Source: a candidate division WOR-3 bacterium UBA5631 (GTDB taxonomy: Bacteria; Hydrothermota; Hydrothermia; UBA1063). Taken from it: a stretch of DNA of 64,000 bases. Below, piece by piece: positions 1,950-47,900 of the stretch. Every line of letters begins with the position of its first letter. The stretch's first letter is position 1. A program made the position numbers and the translations under genes. The notes below the pieces were generated by a model. That model did no database searches. It was not told where the DNA came from and saw nothing but the letters and a program-made list of their open reading frames with translations. The DNA lies in contig DIJZ01000024.1 of NCBI GenBank assembly GCA_002421425.1, positions 349 through 64,348 on the forward strand, read 5' to 3'.

Positions 1950-1984
1950 TTGATTGGTCGATCCCTTGGAATTAAAATATATCG

Positions 1985-7132: not shown

Positions 7133-7161
7133 TTGACTTTTATTCAGTGTGAAATTAAAAT
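7133..7161 (+). promoter_or_regulatory. sigma70-like promoter: TTGACT, 17 nt spacer, TAAAAT; 9 nt before pilT ATG
   Basis: TTGACT is at 7133-7138, followed by an exact 17-nt spacer and TAAAAT at 7156-7161. The ATG is at 7171 and there is no SD sequence. Confidence 0.45.
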
Positions 7162-7170
7162 TAATACACT

Positions 7171-16192: not shown

Positions 16193-16227
16193 AAAAATAT
16201 TATAAAGTCTTGATCACAATCACTATT

Positions 16228-17772: not shown

Positions 17773-17801
17773 TTGAATTAACGAATATAAGCTCTTAACA
17801 T
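17773..17801 (+). promoter_or_regulatory. sigma70-like promoter TTGAAT, 17 nt spacer, TAACAT; 8 nt before ATG 17810
   Basis: TTGAAT is at 17773-17778, followed by a 17-nt spacer and TAACAT at 17796-17801. The first ATG is at 17810 and there is no SD sequence. Confidence 0.35.
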
Positions 17802-17809
17802 TGATACAT

Positions 17810-18652
17810 ATGAAAGAGAGTGTTCGCGTTGGACTTGCGCAGATCTCTGCACGACTTGGGGATATAGAATATAACAAGTCTCAAATAATAAATTCCCTGA
17901 AGATAGCAAAGAACGAAGGTGCTGAGATTGTTATATTTCCTGAACTTGCAACAATCGGGTACGGTTCTGGGGATATCTACCTGGACAAAGTGGATGAGAA
18001 TCTTGACGCACTTGCACACATCGTGGAAGAGGCTGGCAGAATCGGCATCTGGGCGGTCGTGGGATATGTAGAGAAGGATGAGCGTGGTTTCTTCTATAAC
18101 GCAGCGGCTTTGATTGGTGAAGGAAGAATTCAGGGAAGATTCGCAAAAACCCAGCTGGTGAACTACAGATTGTTTGACGAAAAGAAATACTTTAAACCGG
18201 GATCTTTACTTCCGGTATTTGAGACCCCTTTTGGAAAGATTGGGATTCTCATAAGCGAGGATGTTTGGTTCCCTGAAGCTGCAAGAGCTTTAACCTTTAG
18301 GGGAGCCCAGCTGATTTTTGTTCTCTCTGCATCTCCCTTCGATAGAGGAAAAGTCGAAATCTGGGAGGATTTTCTCAAAGTAAGGGTACTTGACAACATC
18401 CTTCCAATTGTCTTCGTGAATATGAGCGGTGTCCAGGAAGGAGTTACTTATTGGGGTGGTAGTGCAGTATATTCAGCCTCAGGGAAAGTTGTAAAAAGGT
18501 TAAAGATTATAGAAACTGATTACGATACCGTCACCGTGGACCTCGAGGAATCCAAAAGGTTACGAAGAAGAGATATCAGAATCCGCGAAGTCAGAAAAGA
18601 AATCCTTGAAGAAGTACTTAGGGCCTTTGAGGAGATGACACGATGGATATAG
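17810..18652 (+). CDS. carbon-nitrogen hydrolase (nitrilase superfamily), glutaminase subunit of a split glutamine-dependent NAD synthetase
   Basis: It has the catalytic Glu context VIFPELATIGY and the Lys context RFAKTQL. The expected Cys motif reads GILISEDVWFPE, with Ser where Cys is expected. It overlaps nadE by 10 nt. Confidence 0.65.
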   Translation: MKESVRVGLAQISARLGDIEYNKSQIINSLKIAKNEGAEIVIFPELATIGYGSGDIYLDKVDENLDALAHIVEEAGRIGIWAVVGYVEKDERGFFYNAAALIGEGRIQGRFAKTQLVNYRLFDEKKYFKPGSLLPVFETPFGKIGILISEDVWFPEAARALTFRGAQLIFVLSASPFDRGKVEIWEDFLKVRVLDNILPIVFVNMSGVQEGVTYWGGSAVYSASGKVVKRLKIIETDYDTVTVDLEESKRLRRRDIRIREVRKEILEEVLRAFEEMTRWI

Positions 18653-22553: not shown

Positions 22554-22693
22554 TATTCAAAAACCTCCAGAACTGTTTATTGAATTAATAGCATCATAAA
22601 GGCGAACTGTAAAGGAAGAACGTTTCTCGCGAGTGGATTTAATGCTATTTCGTGCGTTTTCCCAGGTGTATCGATTAAAATTAATACACTACA

Positions 22694-23539
22694 ATGAAAG
22701 TGTTTAAGTATTTTGTTTTTTGCGGACTTTTTATATTTTTTCTGTATCTTTTTGCATATCCATTTCTTTTCAGGGTAAAATCTCTGGAGTCTGAGAATCC
22801 TGTTCAAACGGCTCTGATGATCTACAGGATCCATCAGTGGAAATCGCAGGGGAAAAATATTAGGATATCCCATACATGGGTGCCACTAAAGAGAATATCA
22901 CCATACCTGGTAAAAGCAGTTTTGATCTCAGAAGATGATAAATTTTTCCAGCATGAAGGATTTGACCTTGAAGGAATCAAACTCGCCATAGAGAAGAATA
23001 TTAAGAAAAAGAAATTAAAATATGGAGGGAGTACTATAAGCCAGCAACTCGCGAAGAATCTGTTTCTTGGACCACGAAAAAGTCTCGTAAGAAAAATTCA
23101 CGAAGCGATTCTGACAGTGAGGATTGAGAAAACTCTGTCCAAACGAAGAATCCTAGAGCTTTATCTTAATGTTGCCGAATGGGGTCCGGGTATATTTGGT
23201 ATTGAAGCTGCATCAGAATACTACTTTTCAAAACCAGCAATTACCCTCACCCCTGAGGAAGCTGCTTTACTTGCTGCTGTTTTACCAAACCCGCAGAAAT
23301 ATTCTCCCGTTAACCCATCAAGATACATAAGTCAAAGGGCAGAAAAGATTCTTTACATAATGAAATTGAGGAATATCATTTCAGAAGAGTATGACAGTAA
23401 TGTAACAAAATCTACACATGATTCACTTTCTAAAGATTCACTCGGTATATATCATGAAACACCACAGGACACATTGAACGTTTACGACACACTGCCAGGC
23501 GCCTCAAGCACCACGAACCTTCAAAATTCAGAAAATTGA
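22694..23539 (+). CDS. mtgA: monofunctional peptidoglycan glycosyltransferase (GT51)
   Basis: It has an N-terminal TM helix and GT51 motifs ISEDDKFFQHEGFD and GGSTISQQLAKNLFL…RK. There is no transpeptidase domain. Confidence 0.75.
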   Translation: MKVFKYFVFCGLFIFFLYLFAYPFLFRVKSLESENPVQTALMIYRIHQWKSQGKNIRISHTWVPLKRISPYLVKAVLISEDDKFFQHEGFDLEGIKLAIEKNIKKKKLKYGGSTISQQLAKNLFLGPRKSLVRKIHEAILTVRIEKTLSKRRILELYLNVAEWGPGIFGIEAASEYYFSKPAITLTPEEAALLAAVLPNPQKYSPVNPSRYISQRAEKILYIMKLRNIISEEYDSNVTKSTHDSLSKDSLGIYHETPQDTLNVYDTLPGASSTTNLQNSEN

Positions 23540-25013: not shown

Positions 25014-25042
25014 TTGACTTTCTGAAAGAGTGATGTTATAAT
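25014..25042 (+). promoter_or_regulatory. consensus sigma70 promoter TTGACT, 17 nt spacer, TGn-TATAAT; 6 nt before ATG
   Basis: TTGACT is at 25014-25019, followed by an exact 17-nt spacer ending in TGT, then TATAAT at 25037-25042. The ATG is at 25049. Confidence 0.5.
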
Positions 25043-25048
25043 CCTAAT

Positions 25049-27202
25049 ATGGACCTGAGAAATGTTATTGAGAAAGTTGAGGATCTTAAGGAAAAACACA
25101 GCTCTGTTACCAGAGCCCTTTCAAAACTTAACGAATTTTACAACAAAGGTGAGATTACCGAGAAACAATTCAAGATCCTCAAGGGCGATTACGAGAAAGA
25201 AATCAACTTTCTGGGAAAGGAATTGGAAGACTTACTGACATCAGTGAAACAGCAACTTGAAGATCTGGAAAGAACTTTGAAAGACCTTAACATGGAGTAT
25301 AATAAAACGAAAATTGATATTCTTCTCGGCGAAATCCCCACAGAGAAAGGAAAAGCAGAACTTGCCAAGATCGCCAAGCAAATTGCCCTTTCACAACATA
25401 CGTACAATCAATGTAAAGCTATTCTCGAAGCGGAAACCGAAGAAGATTTTGAGAGCATAAAGAAAATGGCACCTCCAGCGAGTATAAAAGTTGAAAACGT
25501 TGTATCGGTGCAGGAGTTACTTCACCAGGAAGAGGAACTTAGAAACAAGCGTTTTGAAGGAAAAGCACAGGCTTATTTAAAACCCCTCGAAGAACTTTAC
25601 AATAGACTGGAAAAAATAAGAGATTTCATCTCTGAAAGCATCAAAGAAGTTGAGTCCCAAAAGAACTCTCTGGAAGAAGAAGCGGGGAAACTGGTAATCA
25701 AAATCCGAATGGGAGGCACCGAGGAGCAAGCAGCGCGAAACAGATTAATGGAAGTTATAAAGAAAGTTAAAGAATACGACGAACTCCTGGCAAAAATGAG
25801 TAAAACAGCAGAACAGATTAATCAAAGGCTCGGCATAAAAGAAACTGTACTGGTGGGTGCAGAAGAAGATGCTTCAAAAATAGGACAGATCGAAGAAATA
25901 AACCTTGAGGAAGCCTCAAAAATACTTGAAGAACTCGAAAAACAGGGTCTTGAAATCATTAGTACGGAAACTGTAGAACCTTTAGAAGAAAAACTTATGG
26001 AAGAAGAAAAGGAAGTTGTCGAAACCGAAGCTCCGTCTTCGATTAAGACGGTAAAAATAAAGAAAAAGTCTCCCGTACCCGTTATTGCAGCAGCAGTTCT
26101 TGTAGTTTTGGGAATTCTTTTCGGAGTTTACAGGAAGTTCTTTTTTGCACCCGAAGAAAAAGCCCAGGTCATTTACCCAGTTTATATGGGGAATCCTGCG
26201 CACAACTACGACGTTAGAGCTCAGATTTCCACTCAACCACCAAGAATTGAATGGTCCAGAAATTTTCAGGGCACTCCAGCTCAGCCAGCTGTAAGCAACG
26301 GAACCATATACGCGGGAACAGCTGATGGCAAGCTCTACGCCATTGATTTTTCGGGAAATATCCTCTGGAACGTAAGTCTTAAGGGGTCAATATTGCACAC
26401 CCCTGTGATTGCCAATAACAACATCATTGTCGGAACCCTTGAGGGAATTTTGTACGTCCTCAATACATCTGGTCAAATTATTAGAACAAAAACCTTTACA
26501 GGGGGAATTGCTTCTCCTCCTGTCGCTTTTGGTGAGGTAATCTATGTTCCAGTATTCCAGGAAGGCGTCTATGCTTACAACATAAATCAGGATAAGGTCG
26601 AATGGAAATTCACTACAGAAGGAATGGTTAAAAACATTCCCATTGTTGACGAAGCGAACCTTTATATTGCAGACCTTTCCGGGAAACTTTACGTGGTAAA
26701 TCGTTCTAATGGTATTGAAATCAATAATTTCAAGACTTCAGGACCGATCGAAAGCTATCCGGTACTGTACGAAGGAAAAATTTTCTATGGGAATAATACT
26801 GGAGAGATAGGTTGCTACGATGCAAAGAAAAACGTGTTGCTCTGGTCTTTCAACCTGATGGAACCCGTTGTGGGAAGCCCCACTATCCAGGATTCCTTCT
26901 CCATTTATACTACTGCCTTCGGCAGGGTATTTTGCCACAACAATAGAACAGGTATGAGGATCTGGGATTTCAATACTGGAAATCTGATTTTCTCTACCGC
27001 AGTTATAGTAGATTCGTTTGTTTTTGTAACAACCACAACCGGTGCAGGAGACTTTGGAGAGCTCTACTGTCTTAGCGTTCGGAGTGGAAACCTTGTGTGG
27101 GTACTCCCAATACCCAGAATTCTCGAGACAGCACCTGTCTTCTGGGGAAACCGTCTATTCCTGGCAGCAAGAGACGGCACCTTCTATGCCATGAGTTTTT
27201 GA
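25049..27202 (+). CDS. type-II membrane protein: long N-terminal coiled coil, single TM, C-terminal PQQ-repeat beta-propeller
   Basis: About 330 aa of heptad-rich E/K sequence is followed by a TM helix (VPVIAAAVLVVLGILFGVY). After that come repeated GxLYA(I/L)D…G…W motifs typical of PQQ/BamB-like propeller blades. Confidence 0.6.
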   Translation: MDLRNVIEKVEDLKEKHSSVTRALSKLNEFYNKGEITEKQFKILKGDYEKEINFLGKELEDLLTSVKQQLEDLERTLKDLNMEYNKTKIDILLGEIPTEKGKAELAKIAKQIALSQHTYNQCKAILEAETEEDFESIKKMAPPASIKVENVVSVQELLHQEEELRNKRFEGKAQAYLKPLEELYNRLEKIRDFISESIKEVESQKNSLEEEAGKLVIKIRMGGTEEQAARNRLMEVIKKVKEYDELLAKMSKTAEQINQRLGIKETVLVGAEEDASKIGQIEEINLEEASKILEELEKQGLEIISTETVEPLEEKLMEEEKEVVETEAPSSIKTVKIKKKSPVPVIAAAVLVVLGILFGVYRKFFFAPEEKAQVIYPVYMGNPAHNYDVRAQISTQPPRIEWSRNFQGTPAQPAVSNGTIYAGTADGKLYAIDFSGNILWNVSLKGSILHTPVIANNNIIVGTLEGILYVLNTSGQIIRTKTFTGGIASPPVAFGEVIYVPVFQEGVYAYNINQDKVEWKFTTEGMVKNIPIVDEANLYIADLSGKLYVVNRSNGIEINNFKTSGPIESYPVLYEGKIFYGNNTGEIGCYDAKKNVLLWSFNLMEPVVGSPTIQDSFSIYTTAFGRVFCHNNRTGMRIWDFNTGNLIFSTAVIVDSFVFVTTTTGAGDFGELYCLSVRSGNLVWVLPIPRILETAPVFWGNRLFLAARDGTFYAMSF

Positions 27203-27237
27203 TAGTACGGAACGCCCCCTTTATAATCTAACTTTGC

Positions 27238-27310: not shown

Positions 27311-27353
27311 GTTTAGTTCTGTTCTAAGCATCGTTTTTTTAGAAGGAGGTTTT

Positions 27354-28854: not shown

Positions 28855-28867
28855 AGTCATTGCTGCT

Positions 28868-30769
28868 TCACTGAAATTTTTGATCAAATTGTTCCTGTTC
28901 TTCAAGAATCTTGATTACGATCTCCACAAGATCGGGGTCAAACTGCTTTCCCTGCTCTCTTTTCAATTCGTGGATCACCTGTTCGCGATTCAAAGCGCCT
29001 CTATATGGCCTATCAGAGCGCATAGTTACAACTGCATCAGCGATGCCAAGGATTCTTGCGCCTAATGGAATCCCCTTTCCGCGCAGGCCAAGCGGATAAC
29101 CGGTCCCATCAAACCTTTCATGATGAGACTCGACATATATTGAAACCTGCTCAAGGCCCGGAACGCTTTTGAGAATCTCTTTTCCAATATTTGGATGCCC
29201 CTTAATTTCCTCCCACTCTACATCATTAAGAGGACCGTCCTTCAACAGGATTGATTTCTCTACAATAACTTTCCCAATGTCGTGCAAAAGACCTGCAAGG
29301 TAAATGTTCTTCTTTTCCTCGCTTGTCAAACCTAACTTCTCTGCAATCCTGAGCGAAAACTCTGCTACATCCCGGGAATGACTCGCAGTGAAAATGTCTT
29401 TCTTACTTTCCAGTTGAGAAAGTACATCTATAATACGATCGAGAGTCTCCACACTCTTCTCATAAAGAGAAAGATTTTTCATAGCAATCCCGAGGGAATT
29501 CCACAGAACTTTCACGTACTCAACATCCTCGCTGCTCATAATTTCCTTACTTTTAGAACCAATAAGGGCAATAATCTCAGGGCGAGTATCGATAATCAAG
29601 GGGATCGTCAGAAGCAACTTGTAGCCGCATTCATTGGCCACGGACTTATTAATGCATCCGAATCTCAATTGTTCTTCCGTATTGAATTTTACAAGTTCCC
29701 GGAGGCATTCATTGCGGATTTCGAATCTATCAAGGTCCTTCCGATTAAAGCCATGATTATAAAGTAAATGAAGCTCCATTTCATCAAATTTGAAAAAGGC
29801 ACAATTTTCCATTTTCAGAATCTCCTTACAATATTCTCTTGCAATATCAAAAATCTTTCCGAGGTTTGTCTCAGTCAGGATATCCTCAGAGAGGGTTTTC
29901 ACGAAAAGTAGAGCTTTTAGTCTTCGGATTGAATCCTCCTGATACCTAAGTAATTTTAGAACGCCCAGAAGATAAGGAATAGAAATCCTCAAAACTTCAA
30001 TATCATCATCAACATAAGAAGGTAACCCTTGAAATCGTCCAAGATAAATGAAACCAAAAAGCTCTTCTTCCACAAAAAGTGGAACAACGATAACCCTTGC
30101 AACTTTGTAGTACTCAACGAACTTCTTCAAGATTCTCCTTTCGCTCCAAGTATCGTTTATTACCAGAATATCCCTCAATTCAAGAGCTGTTGCAGCAGCA
30201 GTATCAGGAATAAGGGGAAAGTTAAAGTAGTTCTCTATATCAACATTCCCATGAAGTTCTGTATTAATGTAACCGCTTGCTTTACCAAACAGCATATTAC
30301 TTGACTTATCGTATACCGTCAACGCCCCAATTGTTGAATAGGTCAACTTGCAAATATCAGAAATAATCCTGCTGTAGATTTCATAGTAATCGCGCACATC
30401 ACCAAGACTCTTTATCAGATCGTTGATACTCAACAAAACAAAACGACTCTTAAGAATGTCAATTATGAACTCTACAAAGCTAGAATGCCTGTTAAGCCAT
30501 TGAATAAGCTTTTCCTTATCAGAAGGCCCTCGGAAAATAAGAGATCTCGGCCAGGAAATGTAAACCACAGATTCTCCCAGTGCAAAAGCTCCTTCAGTAT
30601 CGTGTTGAACACCATGCAAGTCCTGATTCAGCTTTGAAAAAAGAATATTGTGCACATAATCCACTCCCTCAACGTCAATGCCCGAAGATTTCAAAAGCCT
30701 CATTAAACGAATTTCGGAGTAAAACATGAGGTAATTATAACAAGGTTGATTAAGTAAATCAAACTCCAT
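28868..30769 (-). CDS. tandem-GAF / HD-GYP domain c-di-GMP phosphodiesterase-type signalling protein
   Basis: The C-terminus has HD-GYP motifs LLHDIGKV and HHERFDGTGYP. The N-terminal two-thirds has GAF-like repeats. Confidence 0.75.
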   Translation of the reverse strand: MEFDLLNQPCYNYLMFYSEIRLMRLLKSSGIDVEGVDYVHNILFSKLNQDLHGVQHDTEGAFALGESVVYISWPRSLIFRGPSDKEKLIQWLNRHSSFVEFIIDILKSRFVLLSINDLIKSLGDVRDYYEIYSRIISDICKLTYSTIGALTVYDKSSNMLFGKASGYINTELHGNVDIENYFNFPLIPDTAAATALELRDILVINDTWSERRILKKFVEYYKVARVIVVPLFVEEELFGFIYLGRFQGLPSYVDDDIEVLRISIPYLLGVLKLLRYQEDSIRRLKALLFVKTLSEDILTETNLGKIFDIAREYCKEILKMENCAFFKFDEMELHLLYNHGFNRKDLDRFEIRNECLRELVKFNTEEQLRFGCINKSVANECGYKLLLTIPLIIDTRPEIIALIGSKSKEIMSSEDVEYVKVLWNSLGIAMKNLSLYEKSVETLDRIIDVLSQLESKKDIFTASHSRDVAEFSLRIAEKLGLTSEEKKNIYLAGLLHDIGKVIVEKSILLKDGPLNDVEWEEIKGHPNIGKEILKSVPGLEQVSIYVESHHERFDGTGYPLGLRGKGIPLGARILGIADAVVTMRSDRPYRGALNREQVIHELKREQGKQFDPDLVEIVIKILEEQEQFDQKFQ

Positions 30770-30831
30770 AGGACATCCAACATCTTTACTTGTCCTTTCA
30801 GTGGTGTTGGATTATAATAATTGAATTGCAA

Positions 30832-30909
30832 GGCGCCATCGTCTAGTCTGGCTAAGGATACCTGGTTCTCAGCCAGGAGACCCGGGTTCAAATCCCGGTG
30901 GCGCTACCA
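30832..30909 (+). tRNA. tRNA-Glu (anticodon CUC), CCA encoded
   Basis: Sequence GGCGCCATCGTCTAGTCTGGCTAAGGATACCTGGTTCTCAGCCAGGAGACCCGGGTTCAAATCCCGGTGGCGCTACCA, with anticodon loop TT-CTC-AG. Confidence 0.85.
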
Positions 30910-30910
30910 C

Positions 30911-30982
30911 TGGGGGATCGTCTAACTGGCAGGACAGCTGACTCTGGATCAGCCGGTCGGGGTTCGAATCCCTGTCCCCCAG
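30911..30982 (+). tRNA. tRNA-Gln (anticodon CUG)
   Basis: Sequence TGGGGGATCGTCTAACTGGCAGGACAGCTGACTCTGGATCAGCCGGTCGGGGTTCGAATCCCTGTCCCCCAG, with anticodon loop CT-CTG-GA. It sits 1 nt after the tRNA-Glu CCA. Confidence 0.85.
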
Positions 30983-30994
30983 TATAATAAATAA

Positions 30995-32880
<1,886 letters not shown>

Positions 32881-32965
32881 AGAAATATTGTAAAGGAAAG
32901 AACCCGAAAAAAATAGGTCCTGACGAAGGAAGCCATGTGATTTGATTGTATGCCCAAATTAGAAC

Positions 32966-32994
32966 TTGAATGTAAAATACCAATGTTTTAAAAT
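32966..32994 (+). promoter_or_regulatory. sigma70-like promoter TTGAAT, 17 nt spacer, TAAAAT; 6 nt before ATG 33001
   Basis: TTGAAT is at 32966-32971, followed by a 17-nt spacer and TAAAAT at 32989-32994. The ATG is at 33001 with no SD. Confidence 0.45.
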
Positions 32995-33000
32995 TTCCAC

Positions 33001-33549
33001 ATGTCGACGATTGAAGTTACTGTTCCTTTCGACAATGAAACCGTCGGAGCTTTTAAAGCAGGCCAACGCCTTTTACTCTCGGGTATAATATATACTGCAA
33101 GAGACGCAGCTCACCGGAGGATACAGCAACAATTGCTCAGCAATGAATTTAACGCTTTCCCCCTCCATGGATCTGTAATCTACTACTGTGGACCAACACC
33201 TACGCCTCCTGGAAAAGTGATAGGTTCAGCAGGACCCACCACATCCTACAGGATGGACCCTTTCGTACCACTTCTCCTGGAAAACGGAGTTAAGGGATTT
33301 ATTGGAAAAGGGAAGAGAAGTGAAGAAGTAAAAGAGTACCTGAAAAAATTCCGGGGAGTTTACCTGATCGCCACAGGCGGTGCCGGAGCTCTGCTCTCCA
33401 CAAGAATAAATTCGTGTAGAATAGTAGCCTACCCAGAACTTGGTCCTGAAGCTATATACGAGCTCACAGTCCAGGATTTCCCTGTCATTGTGGGTATCGA
33501 CGTCTTCGGAAATGACGTCTACGAAATAGGTCCCTTCGCACGAGTTTAG
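33001..33549 (+). CDS. Fe-S hydro-lyase beta subunit (class I fumarate hydratase / L(+)-tartrate dehydratase C-terminal domain type)
   Basis: It has GPTPTPPGKVIGSAGPTTSYRMDPF and FIGKGKRSEEV motifs and a 182-aa size. No alpha subunit is adjacent. Confidence 0.6.
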   Translation: MSTIEVTVPFDNETVGAFKAGQRLLLSGIIYTARDAAHRRIQQQLLSNEFNAFPLHGSVIYYCGPTPTPPGKVIGSAGPTTSYRMDPFVPLLLENGVKGFIGKGKRSEEVKEYLKKFRGVYLIATGGAGALLSTRINSCRIVAYPELGPEAIYELTVQDFPVIVGIDVFGNDVYEIGPFARV

Positions 33550-33550
33550 T

Positions 33551-37596: not shown

Positions 37597-37605
37597 GGAG
37601 GAATT

Positions 37606-39407: not shown

Positions 39408-40355
39408 TCACCAGAGAGTTAAAACCTTTCCAGATCTCAATATGATGCGCAGAAAACTCTGGTGGTTTTCATCATCATACTCATATTTTCTGCCCTGTAC
39501 ATCGCCAATTTCTGTATTGTTCCCAAAAAAGATGCCTGAAATCGTACGATAACGCCTTTCCGTAGTATCAAGTTTTACTCCAGAAACCGCAGCATGGAGA
39601 ACGAAATTTACCCCAAAACGTACAAAACCAACAACTACCCCTCTTGTTGAGTCCTGAAGGCAGTTAGCAGTTACTACAATCGTATCTCCTTGATGGGCTC
39701 CTCCAATCCTGATCGCTTCACCTGCAATTGTACCAACAAATCCGGGGCTTTTCCCTGTTGGAGTTGCACCAACATGACAGTGAACCACATCTTTAATTTC
39801 ATACTCCAATCCAAGAACGTTCTCAACGATAGAAAAAGATGACGTATACAAGCTTACATGACCCTTTTCAAGAATGAGGCCTCCCTGCAAAACGTGCAAA
39901 TATTGACCTTCCTCTATGTACTCATCAACGGAAAGTGTCAGATTCAAGGTATCACCACTAACATTTATCCACGTAAGAACAATCACCGAAGAGTCCCACC
40001 TCTGGGTAGTGACCCATCCTGTGTCACTATAGAAATATTGCCCAAAGGAATAATAATCCCTCAAATACAGATTTCTGTAAAGGTTAACGACATTTATAAA
40101 TGGGGTTGGATCCGTGGGGTCTTCGACCGGGTAACCTTTATCTATCCCAACAAGAATGGGAATGCCTTCAGGTTCGGGAAGTTGCGCAAGCTGAATATGA
40201 GCTTCACTGCTATCTATATCATTAATAAGCTGCCCAAGTTCACCTGTTGCAACTTCTGCTTCGTCCTCGTAAGGAAGTGAAGCCTTTTTACAGGAAAGAG
40301 TAAGCAGCAACAAAGCTATCAATATCACCAAAGATTTTTTCATTTTCACCTCCAT
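39408..40355 (-). CDS. hypothetical lipoprotein
   Basis: It has a signal peptide with lipobox LTLSC, followed by a beta-rich sequence without recognisable motifs. Confidence 0.4.
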   Translation of the reverse strand: MEVKMKKSLVILIALLLLTLSCKKASLPYEDEAEVATGELGQLINDIDSSEAHIQLAQLPEPEGIPILVGIDKGYPVEDPTDPTPFINVVNLYRNLYLRDYYSFGQYFYSDTGWVTTQRWDSSVIVLTWINVSGDTLNLTLSVDEYIEEGQYLHVLQGGLILEKGHVSLYTSSFSIVENVLGLEYEIKDVVHCHVGATPTGKSPGFVGTIAGEAIRIGGAHQGDTIVVTANCLQDSTRGVVVGFVRFGVNFVLHAAVSGVKLDTTERRYRTISGIFFGNNTEIGDVQGRKYEYDDENHQSFLRIILRSGKVLTLW

Positions 40356-40382
40356 AAATTTATTTTACTCTTCACAGGGTTA

Positions 40383-43300
40383 TCAGTCAAGATTTTTATT
40401 TACCACCCGAAGAACGCCCAGTAAAAGGTGCGCCCCCTGCTCTCTCAGCATCCCAAACAGATAGCCTCTTGCTTTGGCGTCCGGTATCTTTGGGAACACA
40501 TCGATACTGCAAATCAACTTCAGATTCTCCTCATGGAGCAGCGAATGAAGCTCACTGGATCTCTCACCGCCCTGTAGAGCAAAAAGGGTCAACCATGAGA
40601 GCCTTATCTCGAGAGAAGCATTTCTTATTAAATCCAGCCACTGCATAAGGTTGTTCGGCTCAAGAAATGAAACCTTTCCATTACAAAGATATTCAAGCAT
40701 TCCAGCATTTATTAAGGATTCAACGTACCTCAACCCCTGTTCGGAAGAAGAATATTCTTTTACTTCCTTTATTATCTTTTCAGTTATCTGACAATCTCCT
40801 TTTAGTCCTCTGACTACTGCAATGTATACTCTTGCCTGCAGAACTCTTCCTGGATTGTTGAGCTTCAAAAATATCTCCTCCGCCCGCGTGAGCATATCAA
40901 TTGCCTGATCGAATTCCATTCTTTTATAAGCAATTATTCCTCGAAGCAGATATGCAATCCCAAGCCTTGAAGGAGCAAGCTCTGAAGCACTTAACATTAC
41001 TTCGTCCAGTAGAGACTCCGCCTTGTCAAATTCATGCAATTCTAAATTTATTCCAGCAAGATTAATTCTTGCTTCAGAATAGTAGTCGGGAGACTTCAAA
41101 TCCTTGAAGATCCTCATCGCTTCTTCATAATGCTGTCTCGCCTCATTAATCTTTCTCCGATTCACGAATACACGGCCAAGATTATTCAAGACCACAGCCA
41201 GAAGAAACCTGCTCCCGGATTTTTTCACGATTGCAAGGGCCTGATTTAAGGACTCCTCAGCACCATCGAGATCCCAGTTCCCAAGATAAATCTGGCTAAC
41301 ATTAATCAATATCTTCGCTCTGGAAATTAGCTCGCCGAGCTCCTCAAAAATTGACATGGCTTTTTCGTAATATGCGAGAGCACTACTAAAGTTGCCGTTA
41401 ATTTGCTCAATGTTACCAAGGAGGTTGAAATCTGCCCCAAGGGTTTTCAGTGACTCTCTCGAACTCAGTCCTGCCTTTTCAATAGCCTTAATACTCAATT
41501 GTGCGAAATGTAGAGCGTTTTTGTAATCACCTAATCTCCAGTATACCCAGGCCTTCTTGTAGCCGGCATAAGCCTGCAGCTCCGGGTCCGCAGACTTTGC
41601 GGGCTCCTCGAGATATTTGAATGCTTCTTCAAATCTCGACTGTTTCTCATAAATACTCGAAACAAGAATTTCGTACTTAAGTTTAATTGCAGAGTTTTCT
41701 TGAAGACCGTCCATATTCGCGTAAAGAATTTCCAGTGCGCTGTCATACTCTCCCAGACCCTCGAGACACTGAGCTATTTTGTAGGCTACCTCCTCATTCA
41801 TTCCAAGATTCCTGTAAGCCCTCAGAGCATAGCCATAAAACCCTTTTGAAAAGGCAAGATCACCAGCTTTTTCGTAGTATTCGAGAGCCTTTTCTTCGTC
41901 ACCAGAGTTTTCGAAATGGAAGCCAACCAGATAAAGCAAATGCTCATCCTTGGTTTTTACTCTCTCAAGTTCATGAGCCACAAGGCCATGCAGTCTCTCT
42001 CTTTCCCGCCTTGTTAGCAACGAATACACCGCATCTTTAAGTAATTCATTTTTAAAAATATATTCAAAATCCCCTTCAATGAATGTGGATCCCTGGGAAA
42101 TAATGAAACCTTCCTTTTCAAGAATGTTAAGGTCCTCCTCTACACTTCGATCCAGTATCTTTACAAGAATACCCTTCCAGAAATGTTTGCCAATCACCGA
42201 GGCAGCTTTCAGGACGTCTTTCTCTCTTTCAGGCAGGCTATCAATAGACTCCACAAGCAAGCCACTAATAGTTTCAGGCAGATGAAATTCTTCTGCTTTG
42301 AGCCTCAGAGGTCCATACTGGAGAAGGTCCTTGACCCTCAGGAAGAACACCAATTCTTCGATAAAGTAGGGATTACCTCGAGTCTTAGACAGCAGTGTCT
42401 CAACAAACTCCTGTGAAACATCTTCCTGGGCCATCTGAAGAATAGTTCGGCAAACGTCTCTTACGAAACCCTCTCCCATACCCGTAAGTTCAATCAAATA
42501 ATCAAATGGAATTGCCTCCATCGATTCTCTGGAAACAAAAACAAATATCATGGAACCCGATTGAATTTTCTCCCTGAACCCGAGGAAGAATTTTCGAGAT
42601 TCTCTATCCAGGAACTGCGCGTCATCCAGAAAAACCACCACTCTCTGCAAATCCTTCAACAATACTTCAACAATCCAGGACATTTGAGCTTCCACATCTT
42701 TCAAAATCTCCGGGGAGAAACGAACCTCACCGCTAAGGACACTTAAAATTCTAGAAGACAGCAAATCTGCATCATTTTTAGAAAAATTATGCATAGACTC
42801 GAGATATCTTGATATACTCTCAGAATCTAGTACTCCTTCCGTGACTATAGTAAATATGTCCTCTACGACCTTCCTGAAGCCATAAAGGGGAGTTTGCTTT
42901 ATGGGATCACACCTGAGATAGGTCTGCTTCACATTTTCAAGTTCTGTAGCAATATTGTTTCTTAATTCCGCGCAAAATCTGGTTTTTCCAATACCTGCAT
43001 CCCCGTAAATATTTACAAAGTAAATCCCACTATTCTTAAAAGCACCCCGCAGCCAACGGGAAACCGATTCAAGTTCTTCTTTCCTACCTGAAAAAGGGGT
43101 CTTAAACCTGCCACGAATGGAAAACTCACTCTCCACAGGCTTTTCTCCAAGCACCTCAAAAACCCTGATAGGCTCCTCTCTTCCTTTAACCTTTACCTGC
43201 CCAAATTCCCTGAAGAAGAAAAACTGGAAAGTAAGATTAACCATCGCCTCTGTAACATAAATCTTCCCGGGTTCTGCGAGTTCTTCTATCCTCTGCGCGA

Positions 43301-43712
43301 CATTTACAGTATCACCAAGCACCGTAGGCTTTTCTCCTGCGATTGAAGACCACAAAACTTCACCCGTATTTATCCCAATTCTCATTTTTATATCTACGCC
43401 TCTTTTTGCGTTCACTTCCTCTAGGTATTTCTGCATCGCCATAGCAGTGGCTATAGCTCTTCGCGGGTCATCACCGTGGGCAACAGGTGCCCCGAACACG
43501 GCCATCACAGCGTCACCGATGAATTTGTCCAGGTACCCTCCATTTTTCTCGATAATTTCCTTAAATTCTTTAAAAATCTCGTCAATCAGTTCCTGCAGGT
43601 CTTCTGGATCCAGGAATTCGGAGAGGCTTGTAAAACCCTTAATGTCCCCAAAGATCACCGTAACGCTTCTTCGTTCAGGCTTAACCTGCTTGCTTGAATA
43701 CATAGATGCCAT
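40383..43712 (-). CDS. class III adenylate/guanylate cyclase fused to STAND-type NTPase and C-terminal TPR array
   Basis: The N-terminal cyclase has VTVIFGDIKGFTSL…FIGDAVMAVFG. The NTPase has Walker A GDAGIGKTRF and Walker B VVVFLDDAQ. About 500 aa of TPR-like repeats follow. Confidence 0.75.
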   Translation of the reverse strand: MASMYSSKQVKPERRSVTVIFGDIKGFTSLSEFLDPEDLQELIDEIFKEFKEIIEKNGGYLDKFIGDAVMAVFGAPVAHGDDPRRAIATAMAMQKYLEEVNAKRGVDIKMRIGINTGEVLWSSIAGEKPTVLGDTVNVAQRIEELAEPGKIYVTEAMVNLTFQFFFFREFGQVKVKGREEPIRVFEVLGEKPVESEFSIRGRFKTPFSGRKEELESVSRWLRGAFKNSGIYFVNIYGDAGIGKTRFCAELRNNIATELENVKQTYLRCDPIKQTPLYGFRKVVEDIFTIVTEGVLDSESISRYLESMHNFSKNDADLLSSRILSVLSGEVRFSPEILKDVEAQMSWIVEVLLKDLQRVVVFLDDAQFLDRESRKFFLGFREKIQSGSMIFVFVSRESMEAIPFDYLIELTGMGEGFVRDVCRTILQMAQEDVSQEFVETLLSKTRGNPYFIEELVFFLRVKDLLQYGPLRLKAEEFHLPETISGLLVESIDSLPEREKDVLKAASVIGKHFWKGILVKILDRSVEEDLNILEKEGFIISQGSTFIEGDFEYIFKNELLKDAVYSLLTRRERERLHGLVAHELERVKTKDEHLLYLVGFHFENSGDEEKALEYYEKAGDLAFSKGFYGYALRAYRNLGMNEEVAYKIAQCLEGLGEYDSALEILYANMDGLQENSAIKLKYEILVSSIYEKQSRFEEAFKYLEEPAKSADPELQAYAGYKKAWVYWRLGDYKNALHFAQLSIKAIEKAGLSSRESLKTLGADFNLLGNIEQINGNFSSALAYYEKAMSIFEELGELISRAKILINVSQIYLGNWDLDGAEESLNQALAIVKKSGSRFLLAVVLNNLGRVFVNRRKINEARQHYEEAMRIFKDLKSPDYYSEARINLAGINLELHEFDKAESLLDEVMLSASELAPSRLGIAYLLRGIIAYKRMEFDQAIDMLTRAEEIFLKLNNPGRVLQARVYIAVVRGLKGDCQITEKIIKEVKEYSSSEQGLRYVESLINAGMLEYLCNGKVSFLEPNNLMQWLDLIRNASLEIRLSWLTLFALQGGERSSELHSLLHEENLKLICSIDVFPKIPDAKARGYLFGMLREQGAHLLLGVLRVVNKNLD

Positions 43713-44086
43713 TATTATATAGGATTATGTGGGTTTTGTGGGGTGTAATCACAGGTTTAATTGCGGGCATTGTGAGTGGATTTTTTGGCGTCGGTGGTGC
43801 CACTGTAATCACTCCCATTCTGATTTATTTTTTTAAGATGTCGCAACACAAAGCCCAAGGAACTTCTCTTGCTGCTTTGCTGCTCCCTGTAGGCCTGCTC
43901 GCCTTTCTTCAATATTACAAAGCAGGAAACGCCGACATCAAACTCGGTCTATCCATCGCCGTTGGAGTCTTTATGGGTGGGCTTCTGGGGGGGTCCCTGG
44001 CTCAGAAAATAAACCCTGTTGACCTCAGAAAAGCTTTTGCAATTTTCCTAATACTTGTAGGAATTCAGTTGTTCTTCAAAAAATAG
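43706..44086 (+). CDS. half-size TSUP (TauE/SafE-like) 4-TM membrane protein
   Basis: It has four helices and a Gly-rich GFFGVGGATVITP motif. The probable start is ATG 43727 (MWVLWG). Confidence 0.45.
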   Translation: MPLLYRIMWVLWGVITGLIAGIVSGFFGVGGATVITPILIYFFKMSQHKAQGTSLAALLLPVGLLAFLQYYKAGNADIKLGLSIAVGVFMGGLLGGSLAQKINPVDLRKAFAIFLILVGIQLFFKK

Positions 44087-44618: not shown

Positions 44619-44878
44619 AAACTAAGCCTCCTTTTTAGCTCTTCATGCGAAATATCTTCAAGTATTTCTAAAATTTTCCTCCTGGACCTCAGACCCGAGA
44701 CTATTCTTATATTTTCTCTTCTAACTCCTATTTTCTTTGCAATAAAATCTAAGAGGCCGTTGTTGGCTTTCCCCTGAATCGGCGGTTCTTTTACCATAAC
44801 CGTAATCTTTGAACCCTTGAATTGCATACCATATCTTTTTGAAGAGGGGATCACCTCAACCTCCAGACTAACTCCCAT
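44615..44878 (-). CDS. DUF167/YggU-family small protein
   Basis: It is 87 aa with …VKEPPIQGKANNGLLDFIAKKIGV… typical of UPF0235. Confidence 0.55.
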   Translation of the reverse strand: MGVSLEVEVIPSSKRYGMQFKGSKITVMVKEPPIQGKANNGLLDFIAKKIGVRRENIRIVSGLRSRRKILEILEDISHEELKRRLSL

Positions 44879-44987
44879 TTTAGTATTATAATGTAAAAAA
44901 TTCGAATTCGGGCTTTAAATCAAATGAATTTCCGGTCGATTTTTAATACTTGCTTTTGAACCATTTTTCATTTAAAATATTTTTAAT

Positions 44988-47900
44988 ATGGAAGAACTGT
45001 TTTTGGTAGACCCCTTAACTCAGCTGTACCATCACAATTATTTCATCGTAAGAATTGGGGAAGAAGTTGCGAGAGCCAAAAGAAAAGGTACTCCACTTTG
45101 TCTGCTTTTCATAGATTTGGACTTCTTCAAGATGATCAACGATAACTTTGGCCACCCTGTAGGGGATGAGGTCTTGAAGCAGTTCGCAATTTCTCTGAAA
45201 AATGCTGTGAGAGAATCTGACCTGATCTTTCGCTATGGAGGAGATGAATTCACCATAATTCTTCCGGAGACTTCTAAGGACGATGCAATAAAAATTGCCC
45301 AGAGGATCAAGGAGACCCTTGAGGATCAGGGATACGGCCCTTCAAAGAATCTGAAACTGTCTTTAAGTATCGGGATTTCACAATTTCCCCTTGATGGAGT
45401 AAATGCCGATGAGATCCTTCAAAAAGCAGATGAAAGAACGTTGAGCAGCAAAAAAACAGGAAGAGGAAAGATAGTATATACCAGCGATATAAGAGAAGAA
45501 ACGCTCAATATATCCCTTTCCGCTGCCCGCATTATTGGGAGGGAAAAGGAAATTAGCAGCTTTACGCAGCTTCTCACAGAGTTCAAGAACACTTCAAAAA
45601 GATTTATTGCCCTCCTGAAAGGCGTAAGGGGCGTGGGGTTAACCAGGCTCCTCGAAGAAATTTCGAAAGTTGCCGATATTCTTGGCATAAGGACATTACA
45701 TGTAACCGTCAAGGAGAAGGATGTAAAAGAGCCTTTCCCGCTCTTGAAAGCAATGCTTCGCGAGCTTATACGCGACGAACACCAGCTGGTCCTGGATGAG
45801 GCGCAGAAGAATATTGTTGCATACTTGATCCCAGAGGCTTTCCCTGGGGAATCCCTTAGAACTATCACCATAAGTGAACACAAAGTAATCCCTGTAGTTT
45901 TAGATTTACTCTGCGCAAAGAAGGCAGAAGATAAGTTACTCTTAAACATCGACAATGGGCAGAATATTACAAAGAGATGTATCCTCCAGCTAATTCATAT
46001 CCTGAAAGAAGAAAGCGCGAGAGACATATCTCTCATTATTGCGAAGACGAGCAGAAATATGTTTGAAGAAGAACTGAAAACCCTTTATGGTGACCTCTAC
46101 AATTTCGAGATCCTGCCACTAAAACGCGAAGAGATAAAGACAATCCTGTGGCAAATCCTGAGATTCGAGCCTGAAGATGAATTCCTTGATTGGATAATGG
46201 CAAAAACTGGGGGAAGGCCACTCTATGTCGATAGAGTCCTGAATACCCTGTTACTTTCCAAGAAACTGTTCCCGGGAGAGACGCACTGGATACTTAGTGA
46301 GTCATATTACTCAGGTGTTGAGGACATTTCGCTACCTCTTGCCGAAGAAATTACAAGCCTTGCACCTCAGGAACGTGAAGTCCTTGAGTTCTGTGCAGTT
46401 TACAACCTCGACTTTTCCACCTCTGTGATAGCAGCCCTTACAGAATTAACCATTACACAGGTTCTGGAGATATTTGATAATCTAACAAGAAATGGATACC
46501 TCGAAGAAATAATTCCTTACAATTTATATAGATTTGCAAACCCCTTTGTCAGGGAGATCATCTATTCACAAATTCCAAAAGAGAAGCGTACAAAGATGCA
46601 CTTCAGAATTGCAAGAATCCTCGACAATAATCCTGATGAAACGGCCAGACTGAACCCACAGATATTATATGAGCACTATATTCAGGGCGGTATGGAGAGT
46701 AAAGCAATCCCGTATATGGAGCTCATGGTAAAGAATGCCATTAAGAAGAGGGAATTCAAGAAAGCAATTCGTCTGATTCAAAGAATATTCGAAATTGCCG
46801 AATATAAACTCCAGATTTCAGAAAAAATAAGATTGTTGAGGGAATTGGCTGTTTGTTTAAGAAACGAAGGTGAAATAGAAGATAGTATTACAAAATTGAA
46901 GATGGCTCTGGAACTAGCAGAAAAATATAACGAAAAATATGAAGAAGCTCTGGTAAGGCTTGAGATTGCATGGATTCAGCATGAGAAGTACGAATCTAAA
47001 GAGCTTTTTATTAACATAGAAGAAATTCAGCAAATAGCGAATCAGATAAAGGACAAAGAAATTCTCGCAAGAGCCTTAATTTACAAAGCATTATATTATA
47101 TAGACTTTGAAAACAATAAGACAAAAGCAGTACTCACCCTTGATGAAGTACTAAACCTCGTAAAAGAGGAAGAGAATCACGAGATTCTTGCACAGGTGTA
47201 TGGAAATCTCGGGAAATGCTATTCACAGCTGAAACAGAACAATAAAGCAAAGGAGAGCTTTGAAATCGCGCTTTATCATGCAAGATTGTGCGAAAATCCG
47301 GATTACCTTGCGTCAATAATGCTGAACTATGGAACTACGCAGTATATTATGCAAGATGTCGAAAGCAGCCGGAAAACCTTCGAAAAAACTCTCGAATTAA
47401 TAAGAAGGGAAAATATCAGGCATCTTATGCCTCATCTTTATTCGAACCTCGCAATGATTTACGTCAACTATGGTGAATATCCAATATCCATAAACTATCT
47501 GGAACAGGCTTTGGATTATGCAAAGGATATGAATCTTGAAGCAGAGGCGCTCACATATTCAGCATACCTTTATGGAGTGAGGGCGTATCTGGGTGATCAC
47601 CAATACTATGAGTCCAAACTTCGTGAGGTTGCGGAAACCGCAAAATACAAGAACTATATGCAAGCATGGGAACGTGCAAATATGTATCTCGTTCACATTT
47701 ATTCCTTCCTCGGCGACTTCACCAATCTTGGGAAGGTAATTAAGAACATCGAGAGCTTCAGGAACCCGAGATCGAAAATGCTCGCAGAAATTGCTGTTTT
47801 GGAAAACCTCGTTGTTTTCTTAAAGGATCCTCGTAAAATAAGAGAACCTTTAATTAATAGAAGAAGGGAAGCCATTGAAAAGGGAGACTTCACCAGTGAA

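Follow-up and report, generated by a model that had tools for sequence, protein, structure and literature searches.

Translation that starts without a ribosome-binding site, known as leaderless initiation, has been amply documented for Actinobacteria, Deinococcus-Thermus and archaea. In 'group C' of GeneMarkS-2 (Lomsadze et al. 2018, PMC6028130), a Pribnow box lies 6–8 nt (~10 bp) before the first genes of operons and Shine-Dalgarno (SD) sites are used elsewhere, so that two start models coexist; 25–50% of operons are affected. For 'TA-led genes' (Zheng et al. 2011, PMC3160421), the motif reads TAtaaT in groups with 40–60% GC. A leaderless start in Mycobacterium needs ATG or GTG (Shell et al. 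2015, PMC4633059), and the leaderless transcriptome of Deinococcus deserti was mapped experimentally (de Groot et al. 2014, as cited in PMC6028130). A different arrangement is the Bacteroidota-type 'group B', where GeneMarkS-2 places 90% of FCB-group genomes and where the motif precedes internal genes too (PMC6028130). Finally, bidirectional promoters with divergent transcription start sites (TSSs) 18 bp apart have been reported (Warman et al. 2021, as described in PMC10268837).

The window analyzed here, a stretch of 64,000 nucleotides with 42% GC, belongs to an uncultured, hot-spring-type member of WOR-3 / Candidatus Hydrothermia (NCBI phylum Caldifarciminota). Judged from its sequence, the pattern in the window matches group C and the TA-led genes. 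Sharply localised -10 hexamers precede first genes and are absent before internal genes, with SD sites on other genes, as in group C; the motif reads TAtaaT at medium GC, as in the TA-led genes of the 40–60% GC groups. Unlike group C, many sites here have a strong conserved -35 (TTGACT) at 17 nt, and the SD-led leaders are often only 10–17 nt long. The host also differs from the known concentrations of leaderless genes in Actinobacteria and Deinococcus-Thermus, both of which are high-GC. With Mycobacterium (PMC4633059) and D. deserti the window shares an ATG or GTG at the predicted +1, the lack of an SD, a status conserved between orthologs despite diverged surroundings and, as a consequence, mis-called annotated starts. 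Those two systems rest on dRNA-seq, ribosome profiling and reporters, whereas here both the true transcription start sites and the mode of translation are inferred from sequence and comparison. Leaderless-type initiation is previously unnoted for the WOR-3 / Ca. Hydrothermia lineage, and a literature search on leaderless initiation with WOR-3 or Caldifarcimin- names found no paper.

According to the original prediction, near-consensus promoters close to start codons suggest frequent leaderless mRNAs that coexist with SD-led genes. Its five cited motif sets (pilT, CN-hydrolase, PQQ-repeat gene, fumB and guaB) passed a base-by-base re-check of hexamers, spacers and start codons, and the SD sites that it named at purE (27354), sucD (37606), clpB (22553, minus strand) and rplR (63968, minus strand) were found as well. 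The hexamers are thus present, but their resemblance to the consensus carries no weight of its own: a scan for 9/12 consensus matches returned 43 sites in 20 kb, compared to 32.1 +/- 5.5 in shuffled sequences. Since hexamer matches alone are not significant, closeness to the consensus was set aside as evidence, and the case was built on position and conservation instead.

To assess position, we defined a -10-like hexamer as TANNNT with at least 5/6 matches to TATAAT and scanned distances (d) of 0–40 nt before the start, with gene starts taken by a crude longest-ORF rule. Among the 61 window genes, 8 had such a hexamer at exactly d=6, and every other distance had 0–3 genes. With about 0.6 genes expected per distance, the excess has a binomial P of 5.6e-7, or 2.3e-5 after correction for the 41 distances. 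None of 2000 shuffles had more than 6 genes at any distance, and 8 was never reached. The peak in the window is one nucleotide wide. Relatives, i.e. Ca. Hydrothermia/WOR-3 metagenome contigs reached via the lineage-specific lipoprotein and polA, displayed the same peak among the 153 genes of their loci (11 genes at d=6, 5 at d=7 and 7 at d=9). A TTGnnn lies exactly 17 nt upstream of the -10 for the starts at 1985, 7171, 17810, 25049, 30727, 33001, 40355, 43727 and 44988. A sigma-70-type pair of -35 and -10 with 16–18 nt spacing was found for fumB, pilT, the PQQ-repeat gene, HD-GYP, M23, GGDEF, TauE-like and the lipoprotein gene, and no recognisable -35 was detected upstream of guaB, polA, LytR_C or DUF167.

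Genes with a near -10 also differ from the others in their ribosome-binding sites and in their place within operons. An SD of at least 5 nt was absent from all 10 near-10 genes of the window and present in 24 of the 51 others (p=0.004); in the relatives the counts were 0 of 27 and 37 of 116, respectively. The near -10 precedes 9 of 31 first genes of operons compared to 1 of 30 internal genes in the window, and 27 of 74 first genes compared to 0 of 69 internal genes in the relatives (p=1.2e-9). This restriction to first genes favors a promoter over an RBS-like motif. The share of operons is of the same order as in group C, both in this automatic count (9/31) and in a count by hand (about half). 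ATG is the start codon of all genes with d=6–10 apart from LytR_C, where it is GTG; TTG does not occur.

Motif position, lack of SD, operon position, fixed start codons and ortholog conservation, all computed directly in this study, together support the view that leaderless mRNAs may be frequent in the window alongside SD-led genes. It is likely that the hexamers are working housekeeping (sigma-70/SigA-type) promoters, placed to start the RNA on, or 2–4 nt before, the start codon (Table 1). When the final T of the -10 is taken as position -7 (PMC10268837), a 6-nt gap would make the A of the ATG the +1. Leaderless mRNAs proper would then be made from fumB, the PQQ-repeat gene, HD-GYP, LytR_C, DUF167, M23 and perhaps polA, and gaps of 8–10 nt would give leaders of 2–4 nt that are not strictly leaderless (pilT, GGDEF, adenylate cyclase and TauE-like). 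Such mRNAs would have no room for an SD and would depend on leaderless initiation, with the AUG or GUG at the 5' end itself recognised by the ribosome. A canonical GGAGG site, often on a very short leader, would serve the genes inside operons and the other first genes. In about one third of the operons or more, a classical promoter would thereby lie so near the start codon that the expected 5' end of the mRNA is the AUG itself or a position only a few bases away.

Table 1. Candidate promoter sites and associated genes (positions in the window; elements listed in the direction of transcription).
Gene or unit	Gene coordinates	Site	Strand	Elements
M23 peptidase	1985-2782	1950..1987	+	TTGATT 1950-1955, 17 nt, TAAAAT 1973-1978, 6 nt, ATG 1985
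pilT-like ATPase	7171-8325	7133..7173	+	TTGACT 7133-7138, 17 nt, TAAAAT 7156-7161, 9 nt, ATG 7171
polA	13697-16192	16190..16204	-	no -35; TATAAT 16204-16199, 6 nt, ATG
CN-hydrolase	17810-18652	17773..17812	+	TTGAAT, 17 nt, TAACAT (17796; 4/6), 8 nt, ATG
Transglycosylase	22694-23539	22676..22696	+	TAAAAT 22676-22681, 12 nt, ATG; no SD
Coiled-coil/PQQ beta-propeller protein	25049-27202	25014..25051	+	TTGACT, 17 nt ending TGT (extended -10), TATAAT 25037-25042, 6 nt, ATG
HD-GYP/GAF protein	28868-30727	30725..30762	-	TTGATT 30762-30757, 17 nt (TGT), TATAAT 30739-30734, 6 nt, ATG 30727
tRNA-Glu/tRNA-Gln/guaB unit		30790..30997	+	promoter TTGTCC-17-TATAAT 30790-30818; tRNA-Glu 30832-30909; tRNA-Gln 30910-30983; guaB ATG 30995
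LytR_C-domain membrane protein	32440-32880	32878..32892	-	no clear -35; TACAAT 32892-32887, 6 nt, GTG 32880
fumB (class I fumarate hydratase beta subunit)	33001-33549	32966..33003	+	TTGAAT 32966-32971, 17 nt, TAAAAT 32989-32994, 6 nt, ATG 33001
Lipoprotein		40341..40390	-	TTGACT 40390-40385, 17 nt, TAAAAT 40367-40362, 6 nt, first AUG 40355, second 40343
TauE-like (119 aa), half of back-to-back pair		43690..43729	+	TTGCTT 43690-43695, 17 nt, TATTAT 43713-43718, 8 nt, ATG 43727
Adenylate cyclase-TPR (1106 aa), half of back-to-back pair		43690..43729	-	TATAAT 43719-43714, 10 nt, ATG 43703
DUF167/YggU	44615-44878	44876..44890	-	TATAAT 44890-44885, 6 nt, ATG 44878; Pfam match from residue 2
GGDEF-TPR protein	44988-48344	44950..44990	+	TTGCTT 44950-44955, 17 nt, TAAAAT 44973-44978, 9 nt, ATG

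Comparison with the relatives separated the five cited genes into two sets: conservation extends to the sites of fumB, pilT and the PQQ-repeat gene but not to the guaB TATAAT or the promoter of CN-hydrolase. For the three conserved genes the -35, the 17-nt spacer, the -10 and the short distance to the ATG are the only conserved upstream features in syntenic relatives. The fumB promoter has only a 9/12 consensus match; in an ungapped alignment of the window with five relatives (6 sequences), TTGAA, TTAAAAT and ATG are invariant, with at most one or two isolated spacer columns besides, and the predicted TSS is the A of the ATG. The pilT alignment of the window with four relatives (5 sequences) displays invariant TAATTGACTT, TTAAAATT and ACTATG, again with one or two isolated columns at most in otherwise diverged spacers. 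A conserved A lies seven nucleotides after the pilT -10, and the leader is predicted to be 3 nt (ACU). The PQQ-repeat promoter, an 11/12 consensus match with TG, reads TTGACT-17-TATAAT-7/6-ATG in the orthologs of L094 and L095.

The pattern had been under-counted, as at least seven further cases were detected, at 1985, 16192 (minus strand), 30727 (minus), 32880 (minus), 44878 (minus), 44988 and 43703 (minus)/43727 (plus). The relatives keep the geometry for LytR_C, DUF167, GGDEF, adenylate cyclase and HD-GYP; the M23 gene lies outside the fetched loci of the relatives and was left out of this comparison. LytR_C orthologs in five relatives have TAAAAT-6/7-ATG or GTG, DUF167 has TATAAT-6/7-start in 7/7 relatives, and the -10 of GGDEF stands 6–10 nt before the start in the relatives. 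For HD-GYP, TTGAYT-17-TATAAT-6-ATG is common to L088, L089 and L091. For this gene, both the longest ORF and the 633-aa public call begin 14 codons further upstream, at 30769, which is probably too far, the real start being the ATG at 30727 on this promoter evidence. SD-centred gene finders would thus mis-place starts in such MAGs.

The back-to-back TauE-like and adenylate cyclase genes share one -10 segment on both strands, an arrangement kept in 7/7 relatives. The first ATG of the cyclase, at 43712 (d=1), was rejected as the start in favor of 43703 (d=10) on ortholog evidence. As in the bidirectional promoters of Warman et al. (2021), in so far as these are described in PMC10268837, the -10s overlap, -7T and -11A pair reciprocally at 43713-43719, and the predicted TSSs (43725 and 43707) lie 18 bp apart. 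Unlike those promoters as described there, this one would give two near-leaderless mRNAs, both from conserved protein genes, with start codons 23 bp apart, each -35 lies inside the opposite gene, and the TSSs are predictions.

Several observations count against the promoter reading. Loose hexamer pairs are common, several genes with d=6 have no -35, and three sites (polA, CN-hydrolase and guaB) are not conserved. The CN-hydrolase is the weakest cited case: its orthologs in L093–L095 are operon-internal, 3–10 nt after the upstream ORF and in some cases with an SD, and the ortholog in L092 has a TATAAT 15 nt upstream. A -10 hexamer was sought before polA in the relatives and was lacking; there polA abuts or overlaps the upstream gene. 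We therefore rejected polA and CN-hydrolase as conserved sites and kept them only as window-specific candidates.

At guaB, the TATAAT (30983-30988), 6 nt before the ATG, overlaps the last base of tRNA-Gln. Lacking conservation in the relatives, it was rejected as a conserved promoter of guaB itself, and the site was reinterpreted as a tRNA-mRNA junction. Here we lean, if only slightly, towards the reading that guaB has no promoter of its own and is expressed by read-through from the promoter at 30790-30818, with a 5' end made by cutting at the tRNA-Gln 3' end, an SD-less leader of about 11 nt, and a TATAAT that is incidental or a recent addition. Co-transcripts of tRNA and mRNA are established, e.g. 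E. coli thrU-tufB. The tRNA-Gln ends 11 nt before the guaB ATG, leaving no room for a terminator, and a -35 for guaB would be impossible except inside the tRNA. The tRNA promoter matches 10/12 consensus positions, and L085 also has its -10. The adjacency of tRNA-Gln and guaB (10–16 nt, no SD) is kept in L085, L088, L089 and L091, although the TATAAT is not. Since guaB follows tRNA-Gln at 10–16 nt in all relatives, co-transcription is probably the better explanation on this comparative evidence. On the other side, the window has a perfect TATAAT at the leaderless distance, promoters consisting of a -10 only exist, and an own promoter and tRNA read-through could operate together.

Alternatively, the hexamers might have arisen by chance, or might be a non-SD motif of the group B type that acts in ribosome binding or as an enhancer, with the real promoters further upstream and ordinary SD-less leaders. 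A/U-rich sequence upstream of starts aids initiation, and loose promoter matches barely exceed shuffles. In a guaB scan of species-representative genomes, only matches of at most 60% identity were obtained (WOR-3, Gemmatimonadota, Ignavibacteria and Firmicutes); the nearest, in WOR-3, Gemmatimonadota and Ignavibacteria MAGs, include FCB-group phyla (Gemmatimonadota and Ignavibacteria), and as in group B many window genes have no SD. However, a group-B motif would also precede internal genes (PMC6028130), where the near -10 is absent in the relatives and occurs once in the window; here the motif is promoter-like and stands before first genes alongside strong GGAGG sites. Likewise, the one-nucleotide peak, the conserved TTGnnn at exactly 17 nt in most cases and the clear use of canonical SD sites elsewhere, where they are abundant in the window, speak against this alternative. 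The same crude procedure yielded no gene at d=6 in unrelated taxa of similar GC, among 130 Bacilli, 125 Clostridia, 140 Bacteroidota, 91 Ignavibacteria and 454 Gemmatimonadota genes. The guaB-scan genomes, having no d=6 peak, served only as negative controls. Overall, we regard a chance or group-B origin of the hexamers as highly improbable.

Promoters abutting the start codon, which we favor, presuppose that the start codons are correctly placed. At the lipoprotein gene they are not: the predicted transcript begins AUGGAGGUGAAAAUG and its first AUG (40355) is in frame, but we rejected it as a leaderless start, because translation of the homologs, 311-aa proteins that begin MKK... and carry a signal peptide and a lipobox, starts at the second ATG (40343), and GGAGGTGA separates the two. 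Thus, the first in-frame ATG at a predicted 5' end need not be the real start. DUF167 calls for similar caution, as its codon 9 is an in-frame GTG with GGAGGT 4 nt ahead of it, and mini-leaders of 10–17 nt with only an SD are common in the window (9409, 24606 and 17164). Elsewhere the starts appear fixed. The first 40 codons of fumB, PQQ, M23 and CN-hydrolase contain no alternative in-frame ATG, GTG or TTG; Pfam domains begin at residues 2–7 in polA (5'-3' exonuclease domain, residue 2), DUF167, GGDEF (residue 7) and CN-hydrolase; ortholog proteins align from residue 1; and a search for SD-like strings after the start codons returned none beyond 40355 and DUF167. General mis-assignment, with transcription starting at these codons and translation at a downstream codon behind an SD inside the apparent coding 5' end, is therefore highly improbable. 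An Rfam search of the window detected nothing but four tRNAs, so that no known leader RNA or riboswitch explains any of the upstream regions.

The result leaves the current understanding of translation initiation unchanged and adds a moderately AT-rich uncultured candidate phylum to the groups with leaderless initiation. The signal is unusually clean in this lineage owing to strong conservation of the -35 and -10 boxes; promoters can be recognised from the sequence itself, and metatranscriptomes of the source sites could test them at single-base resolution. We tentatively raise the possibility that the whole clade relies on minimised 5' UTRs, by three routes: AUG-abutting promoters, SD-only leaders of 10–15 nt, and the tRNA-Gln/guaB junction, at which a cut at the 3' end of the tRNA would leave an mRNA with about 10 nt of leader and no SD. 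If true, the junction would be a promoter-independent way to a near-leaderless message, retained throughout the divergence of these genomes, and the conserved bidirectional promoter, with two near-leaderless mRNAs from one -10 segment, would reflect the same economy. The predicted 12-nt lipoprotein leader is essentially just the SD GGAGGTGA, and the relatives have TTGACT-17-TAxAAT followed by a leader of about 10–15 nt with GGAGGTG. For the transglycosylase, the 12-nt gap predicts a leader of about 5–6 nt, and in the relatives the -10 stands 10–15 nt before the start.

The original prediction held that near-consensus -35/-10 promoters lie 6-9 nt from start codons without a Shine-Dalgarno (SD) site, suggesting leaderless mRNAs. 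All five motif sets cited for it were present when checked on the window sequence and again when re-verified, and SD sites were borne out for purE (27354), sucD (37606), clpB (22553, -) and rplR (63968, -). The near-consensus hexamers do exist, but by themselves their matches are not beyond chance: a scan of positions 25001-45000 for 9-of-12 consensus matches gave 43 promoter-like sites, while shuffled sequence gave 32.1 +/- 5.5. The site at 32966, upstream of the fumarate hydratase beta subunit gene (fumB), scores just 9/12. Several further candidates had been overlooked and are included in the table.

Candidate promoters close to start codons in the window
Gene	Position	Strand	Arrangement	First listed
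pilT-like gene	-35 7133; -10 7156; ATG 7171	+	TTGACT-17-TAAAAT-9-ATG	original prediction
CN-hydrolase	-35 17773; -10 17796; ATG 17810	+	TTGAAT-17-TAACAT-8-ATG	original prediction
Coiled-coil/PQQ-propeller gene	-35 25014; -10 25037; ATG 25049	+	TTGACT-17 (ending TGT)-TATAAT-6-ATG	original prediction
fumB (Pfam Fumerase_C)	-35 32966; -10 32989; ATG 33001	+	TTGAAT-17-TAAAAT-6-ATG	original prediction
guaB	-10 30983; ATG 30995	+	TATAAT-6-ATG	original prediction
M23 peptidase	1985	+	TTGATT-17-TAAAAT-6-ATG	this analysis
polA	16192	-	TATAAT-6-ATG	this analysis
LytR_C protein	32880	-	TACAAT-6-GTG	this analysis
DUF167	44878	-	TATAAT-6-ATG	this analysis
GGDEF protein	44988	+	TTGCTT-17-TAAAAT-9-ATG	this analysis
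HD-GYP/GAF protein	ATG 30727	-	TTGATT-17 (TGT)-TATAAT-6-ATG	this analysis
Divergent pair	43703 and 43727	- and +		this analysis

We then scanned the distance d between -10 hexamer and start codon in 61 window genes, a crude set of longest non-overlapping ORFs, recording any TANNNT that agreed with TATAAT at 5/6 positions or more. A sharp excess appeared at exactly d=6, with 8/61 genes against 0-3 at every other distance in the range 0-40 (binomial P=5.6e-7; 2.3e-5 after correction for 41 distances), and in shuffled upstream regions (n=2000) the count at any distance never exceeded 6. The same procedure gave a d=6 count of zero in 130 Bacilli, 125 Clostridia, 140 Bacteroidota, 91 Ignavibacteria and 454 Gemmatimonadota genes from loci retrieved via guaB, so neither the method nor base composition accounts for the peak. 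In relatives (153 genes, eight non-redundant loci) the histogram peaked at d=6 (11), d=7 (5) and d=9 (7).

No gene with a -10 at d=5-10, in the window or in relatives, carried an SD of at least 5 nt. About half of the remaining window genes did, typically AAGGAGG or GGAGGT (window, 0/10 versus 24/51, p=0.004; relatives, 0/27 versus 37/116, p=1.5e-4), which agrees with the proposed coexistence of both initiation modes. The near -10 motif also depended on operon position: it preceded 9/31 first genes of transcription units versus 1/30 internal genes in the window, and 27/74 versus 0/69 in relatives (p=1.2e-9). First-gene restriction is how GeneMarkS-2 separates group C, where the motif is a promoter, from group B, where it is a non-SD ribosome-binding motif found before internal genes as well (PMC6028130).

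A contig identical to that of the window occurs in metagenome assemblies ENA ERZ27315067 (85.6 kb), JGI 3300040964 and JGI 3300038387. The closest named proteins belong to Candidatus Hydrothermia and candidate division WOR-3 MAGs, both under phylum Caldifarciminota in current NCBI taxonomy; GC content is 40-44%. For comparison we used eleven syntenic loci from relatives, seven retrieved via a lineage-specific lipoprotein (identity 42-51%; guaB 77-85%, fumB 63-69%) and four via polA (58-66%). fumB has TTGAAn-17-TAAAAT-6-ATG in 6/6 sequences, and the invariant columns of its ungapped alignment are TTGAA, TTAAAAT, ATG and one isolated spacer column. The pilT promoter reads TAATTGACTT-(16)-TTAAAATT-...-ACTATG in 5/5 sequences; the A seven nt past the -10 is invariant, so a 3-nt leader, ACU, is predicted. 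The PQQ gene keeps TTGACT-17-TATAAT-6/7-ATG in three sequences and DUF167 keeps TATAAT 6-7 nt from the start in 8/8. Across window and relatives LytR_C has TAAAAT or TACAAT at 6-7 nt, and in the GGDEF gene the -10 lies 6-10 nt before the start. In adenylate cyclase orthologs TATAAT lies 10-11 nt from the start, and the window start was accordingly moved to ATG 43703. Two sites were rejected as conserved: polA in relatives lacks the -10 and directly adjoins or overlaps the gene before it, and three CN-hydrolase orthologs start 3-10 nt past the upstream ORF, sometimes with an SD (the window hexamer is merely TAACAT). The fumB gene, 33001-33549(+), is solitary, flanked by convergent and divergent neighbours; no alpha-subunit gene adjoins it in the window, and relatives share the arrangement.

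For guaB alone, tRNA-linked expression is more probable than not. Its TATAAT was rejected as a conserved promoter, relatives having TTTAAA, CTTAAA or TTTAAC instead; in the window it may add a leaderless start. What is conserved is an SD-less ATG 10-16 nt past the last base of tRNA-Gln (11 nt in the window, region 30832-30997), leaving no space for a terminator, so guaB must at the least be read through from the tRNA operon. A 10/12 promoter, TTGTCC-17-TATAAT (30790-30818), precedes tRNA-Glu, and its -10 is also present in the related locus L085. The tRNA genes have no encoded CCA, and, given how tRNAs generally mature, endonucleolytic 3' processing would yield an SD-less guaB mRNA with a leader of ~11 nt. 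In region 27199-27356 the start of the SD-bearing purE lies 43 nt past tRNA-Lys, whose unit has the promoter TTGATA-17-TATAAT (27199-27227). Both tRNA units have strong promoters, and the predicted TSS of each precedes the 5' end of the mature tRNA by only a few nt.

Systematic mis-assignment of starts holds for one gene, is possible for DUF167 and is excluded for most. The one case, 40355(-), was rejected as leaderless despite its TTGACT-17-TAAAAT-6-ATG: homologs are 311-aa lipoproteins beginning MKK, and the start region reads ATGGAGGTGAAAATG, so the predicted transcript opens with an in-frame AUG, then GGAGGTGA, with the real start 12 nt downstream. In relatives the same promoter is followed by a 10-15-nt leader containing GGAGGTG. 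This gene and its relatives argue that the lineage also uses mini-leaders of little beyond the SD; similar ones are seen at 9409(-), 24606(-) and 17164(-). Elsewhere, domain boundaries and missing alternative starts speak against mis-assignment. Pfam domains of polA, DUF167, GGDEF and CN-hydrolase begin at residues 2-7, leaving no room for a downstream start; the first 40 codons of fumB, PQQ, M23 and CN-hydrolase contain no alternative in-frame ATG, GTG or TTG; and orthologous proteins align from residue 1. By longest-ORF construction no in-frame start codon lies further upstream before a stop. Candidate leaderless genes start with ATG, once with GTG and never with TTG, which fits the 5'-terminal AUG or GUG required in mycobacteria (PMC4633059).

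The longest HD-GYP ORF (28868-30769) and the public gene call (633 aa) begin at 30769(-); because the promoter inside the first 14 codons is conserved (TTGAYT-17-TATAAT-6-ATG in four sequences), the start is probably at 30727 (619 aa). A conserved peptide was rejected here, since the apparent amino-acid similarity over the 14 upstream codons comes from in-frame translation of the two promoter boxes (-35 and -10). SD-oriented gene callers are likely to mis-place starts throughout the lineage. The ORF at 17180-17764(+) (194 aa, TTG start, no Pfam match) is probably too long as well: orthologs have 149-162 aa and a -10 at 4-7 nt before ATG, and the likely window start is ATG 17279, with TATACT (17264-17269) at 9 nt. 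The lipoprotein family (window 39408-40355(-) and proteins P0001-P0014) has no Pfam match, comprises just 14 clusters among 5.8 billion database proteins and shares the core QLAQLPEPxGxPILVG and DPTDPTP; since all named members are Ca. Hydrothermia/WOR-3, it is a lineage-specific marker.

Chance hexamers, or an AU-rich non-SD ribosome-binding site, are contradicted by the restriction to first genes, a peak one nucleotide wide and the conserved -35 boxes.

Leaderless initiation is predicted from the geometry. Counted from the TSS, the final T of the -10 occupies position -7 (PMC10268837); with a 6-nt gap, transcription would therefore begin on the A of ATG, and 8-10-nt gaps would give 2-4-nt leaders. 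Among roughly 28 transcription units recognisable by hand, eight have d=6 and about seven d=8-12; conservation backs nine to eleven of these. Depending on stringency, between a third and a half of these units would have leaderless or almost leaderless transcripts, a share inside or close to the 25-50% range given for group C bacteria (PMC6028130). Group C comprises 1028/4769 bacteria, concentrated in Actinobacteria and Deinococcus-Thermus, whereas 90% of FCB-group genomes are group B (PMC6028130); FCB phyla were among the nearest matches in a species-representative genome scan (guaB identity <=60%). The lineage nevertheless departs from group B and agrees with group C in every sequence-level comparison. 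The pattern matches group C and the genes that Zheng et al. 2011 (PMC3160421) call 'TA-led'. A literature search of incomplete coverage gave no paper tying leaderless transcription to WOR-3 or Caldifarciminota. The pattern predicted for this lineage is solid in silico.

Three promoter regions showed additional features. In region 43690-43742, the adenylate cyclase-TPR (ATG 43703, -) and TauE-like (119 aa; ATG 43727, +) genes have start codons only 23 bp apart and one -10 segment in common, TATTAT 43713-43718 (+) / TATAAT 43719-43714 (-), with reciprocal -7T/-11A. Their TSSs, predicted from sequence to lie 18 bp apart, give the layout of symmetrical bidirectional promoters (PMC10268837). The arrangement is kept in 7/7 relatives' loci, and the coding sequence of the cyclase contains the TauE-like -35 (TTGCTT, 43690-43695). 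An exact 18-mer, ATTAAAATTAATACACTA, spans the -10 and initial transcribed region of both the pilT-like (7154-7171) and transglycosylase (22674-22691) genes, both on the + strand. With at most 3 mismatches it has 3 window sites, including the two exact copies, versus 0.08 expected by chance; it is absent from relatives' transglycosylase promoters and might be an operator common to the two genes or the result of a small duplication of a promoter. Finally, the FIST-domain gene (12313-13593, -) has a strongly conserved ~45-nt leader (region 13594-13660), AAAAGGAGGATTAGAAAATTTTCCTGAAyGATGATTGGTGGAA, near-identical between the window and four relatives that share only 58-66% polA identity with it. 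It matches no Rfam family, carries GGAGG ~40 nt before the ATG and stands at the front of an operon encoding FIST, histidine kinase and PatA-type response regulator proteins, where it may act as a regulatory RNA or protein-binding site.
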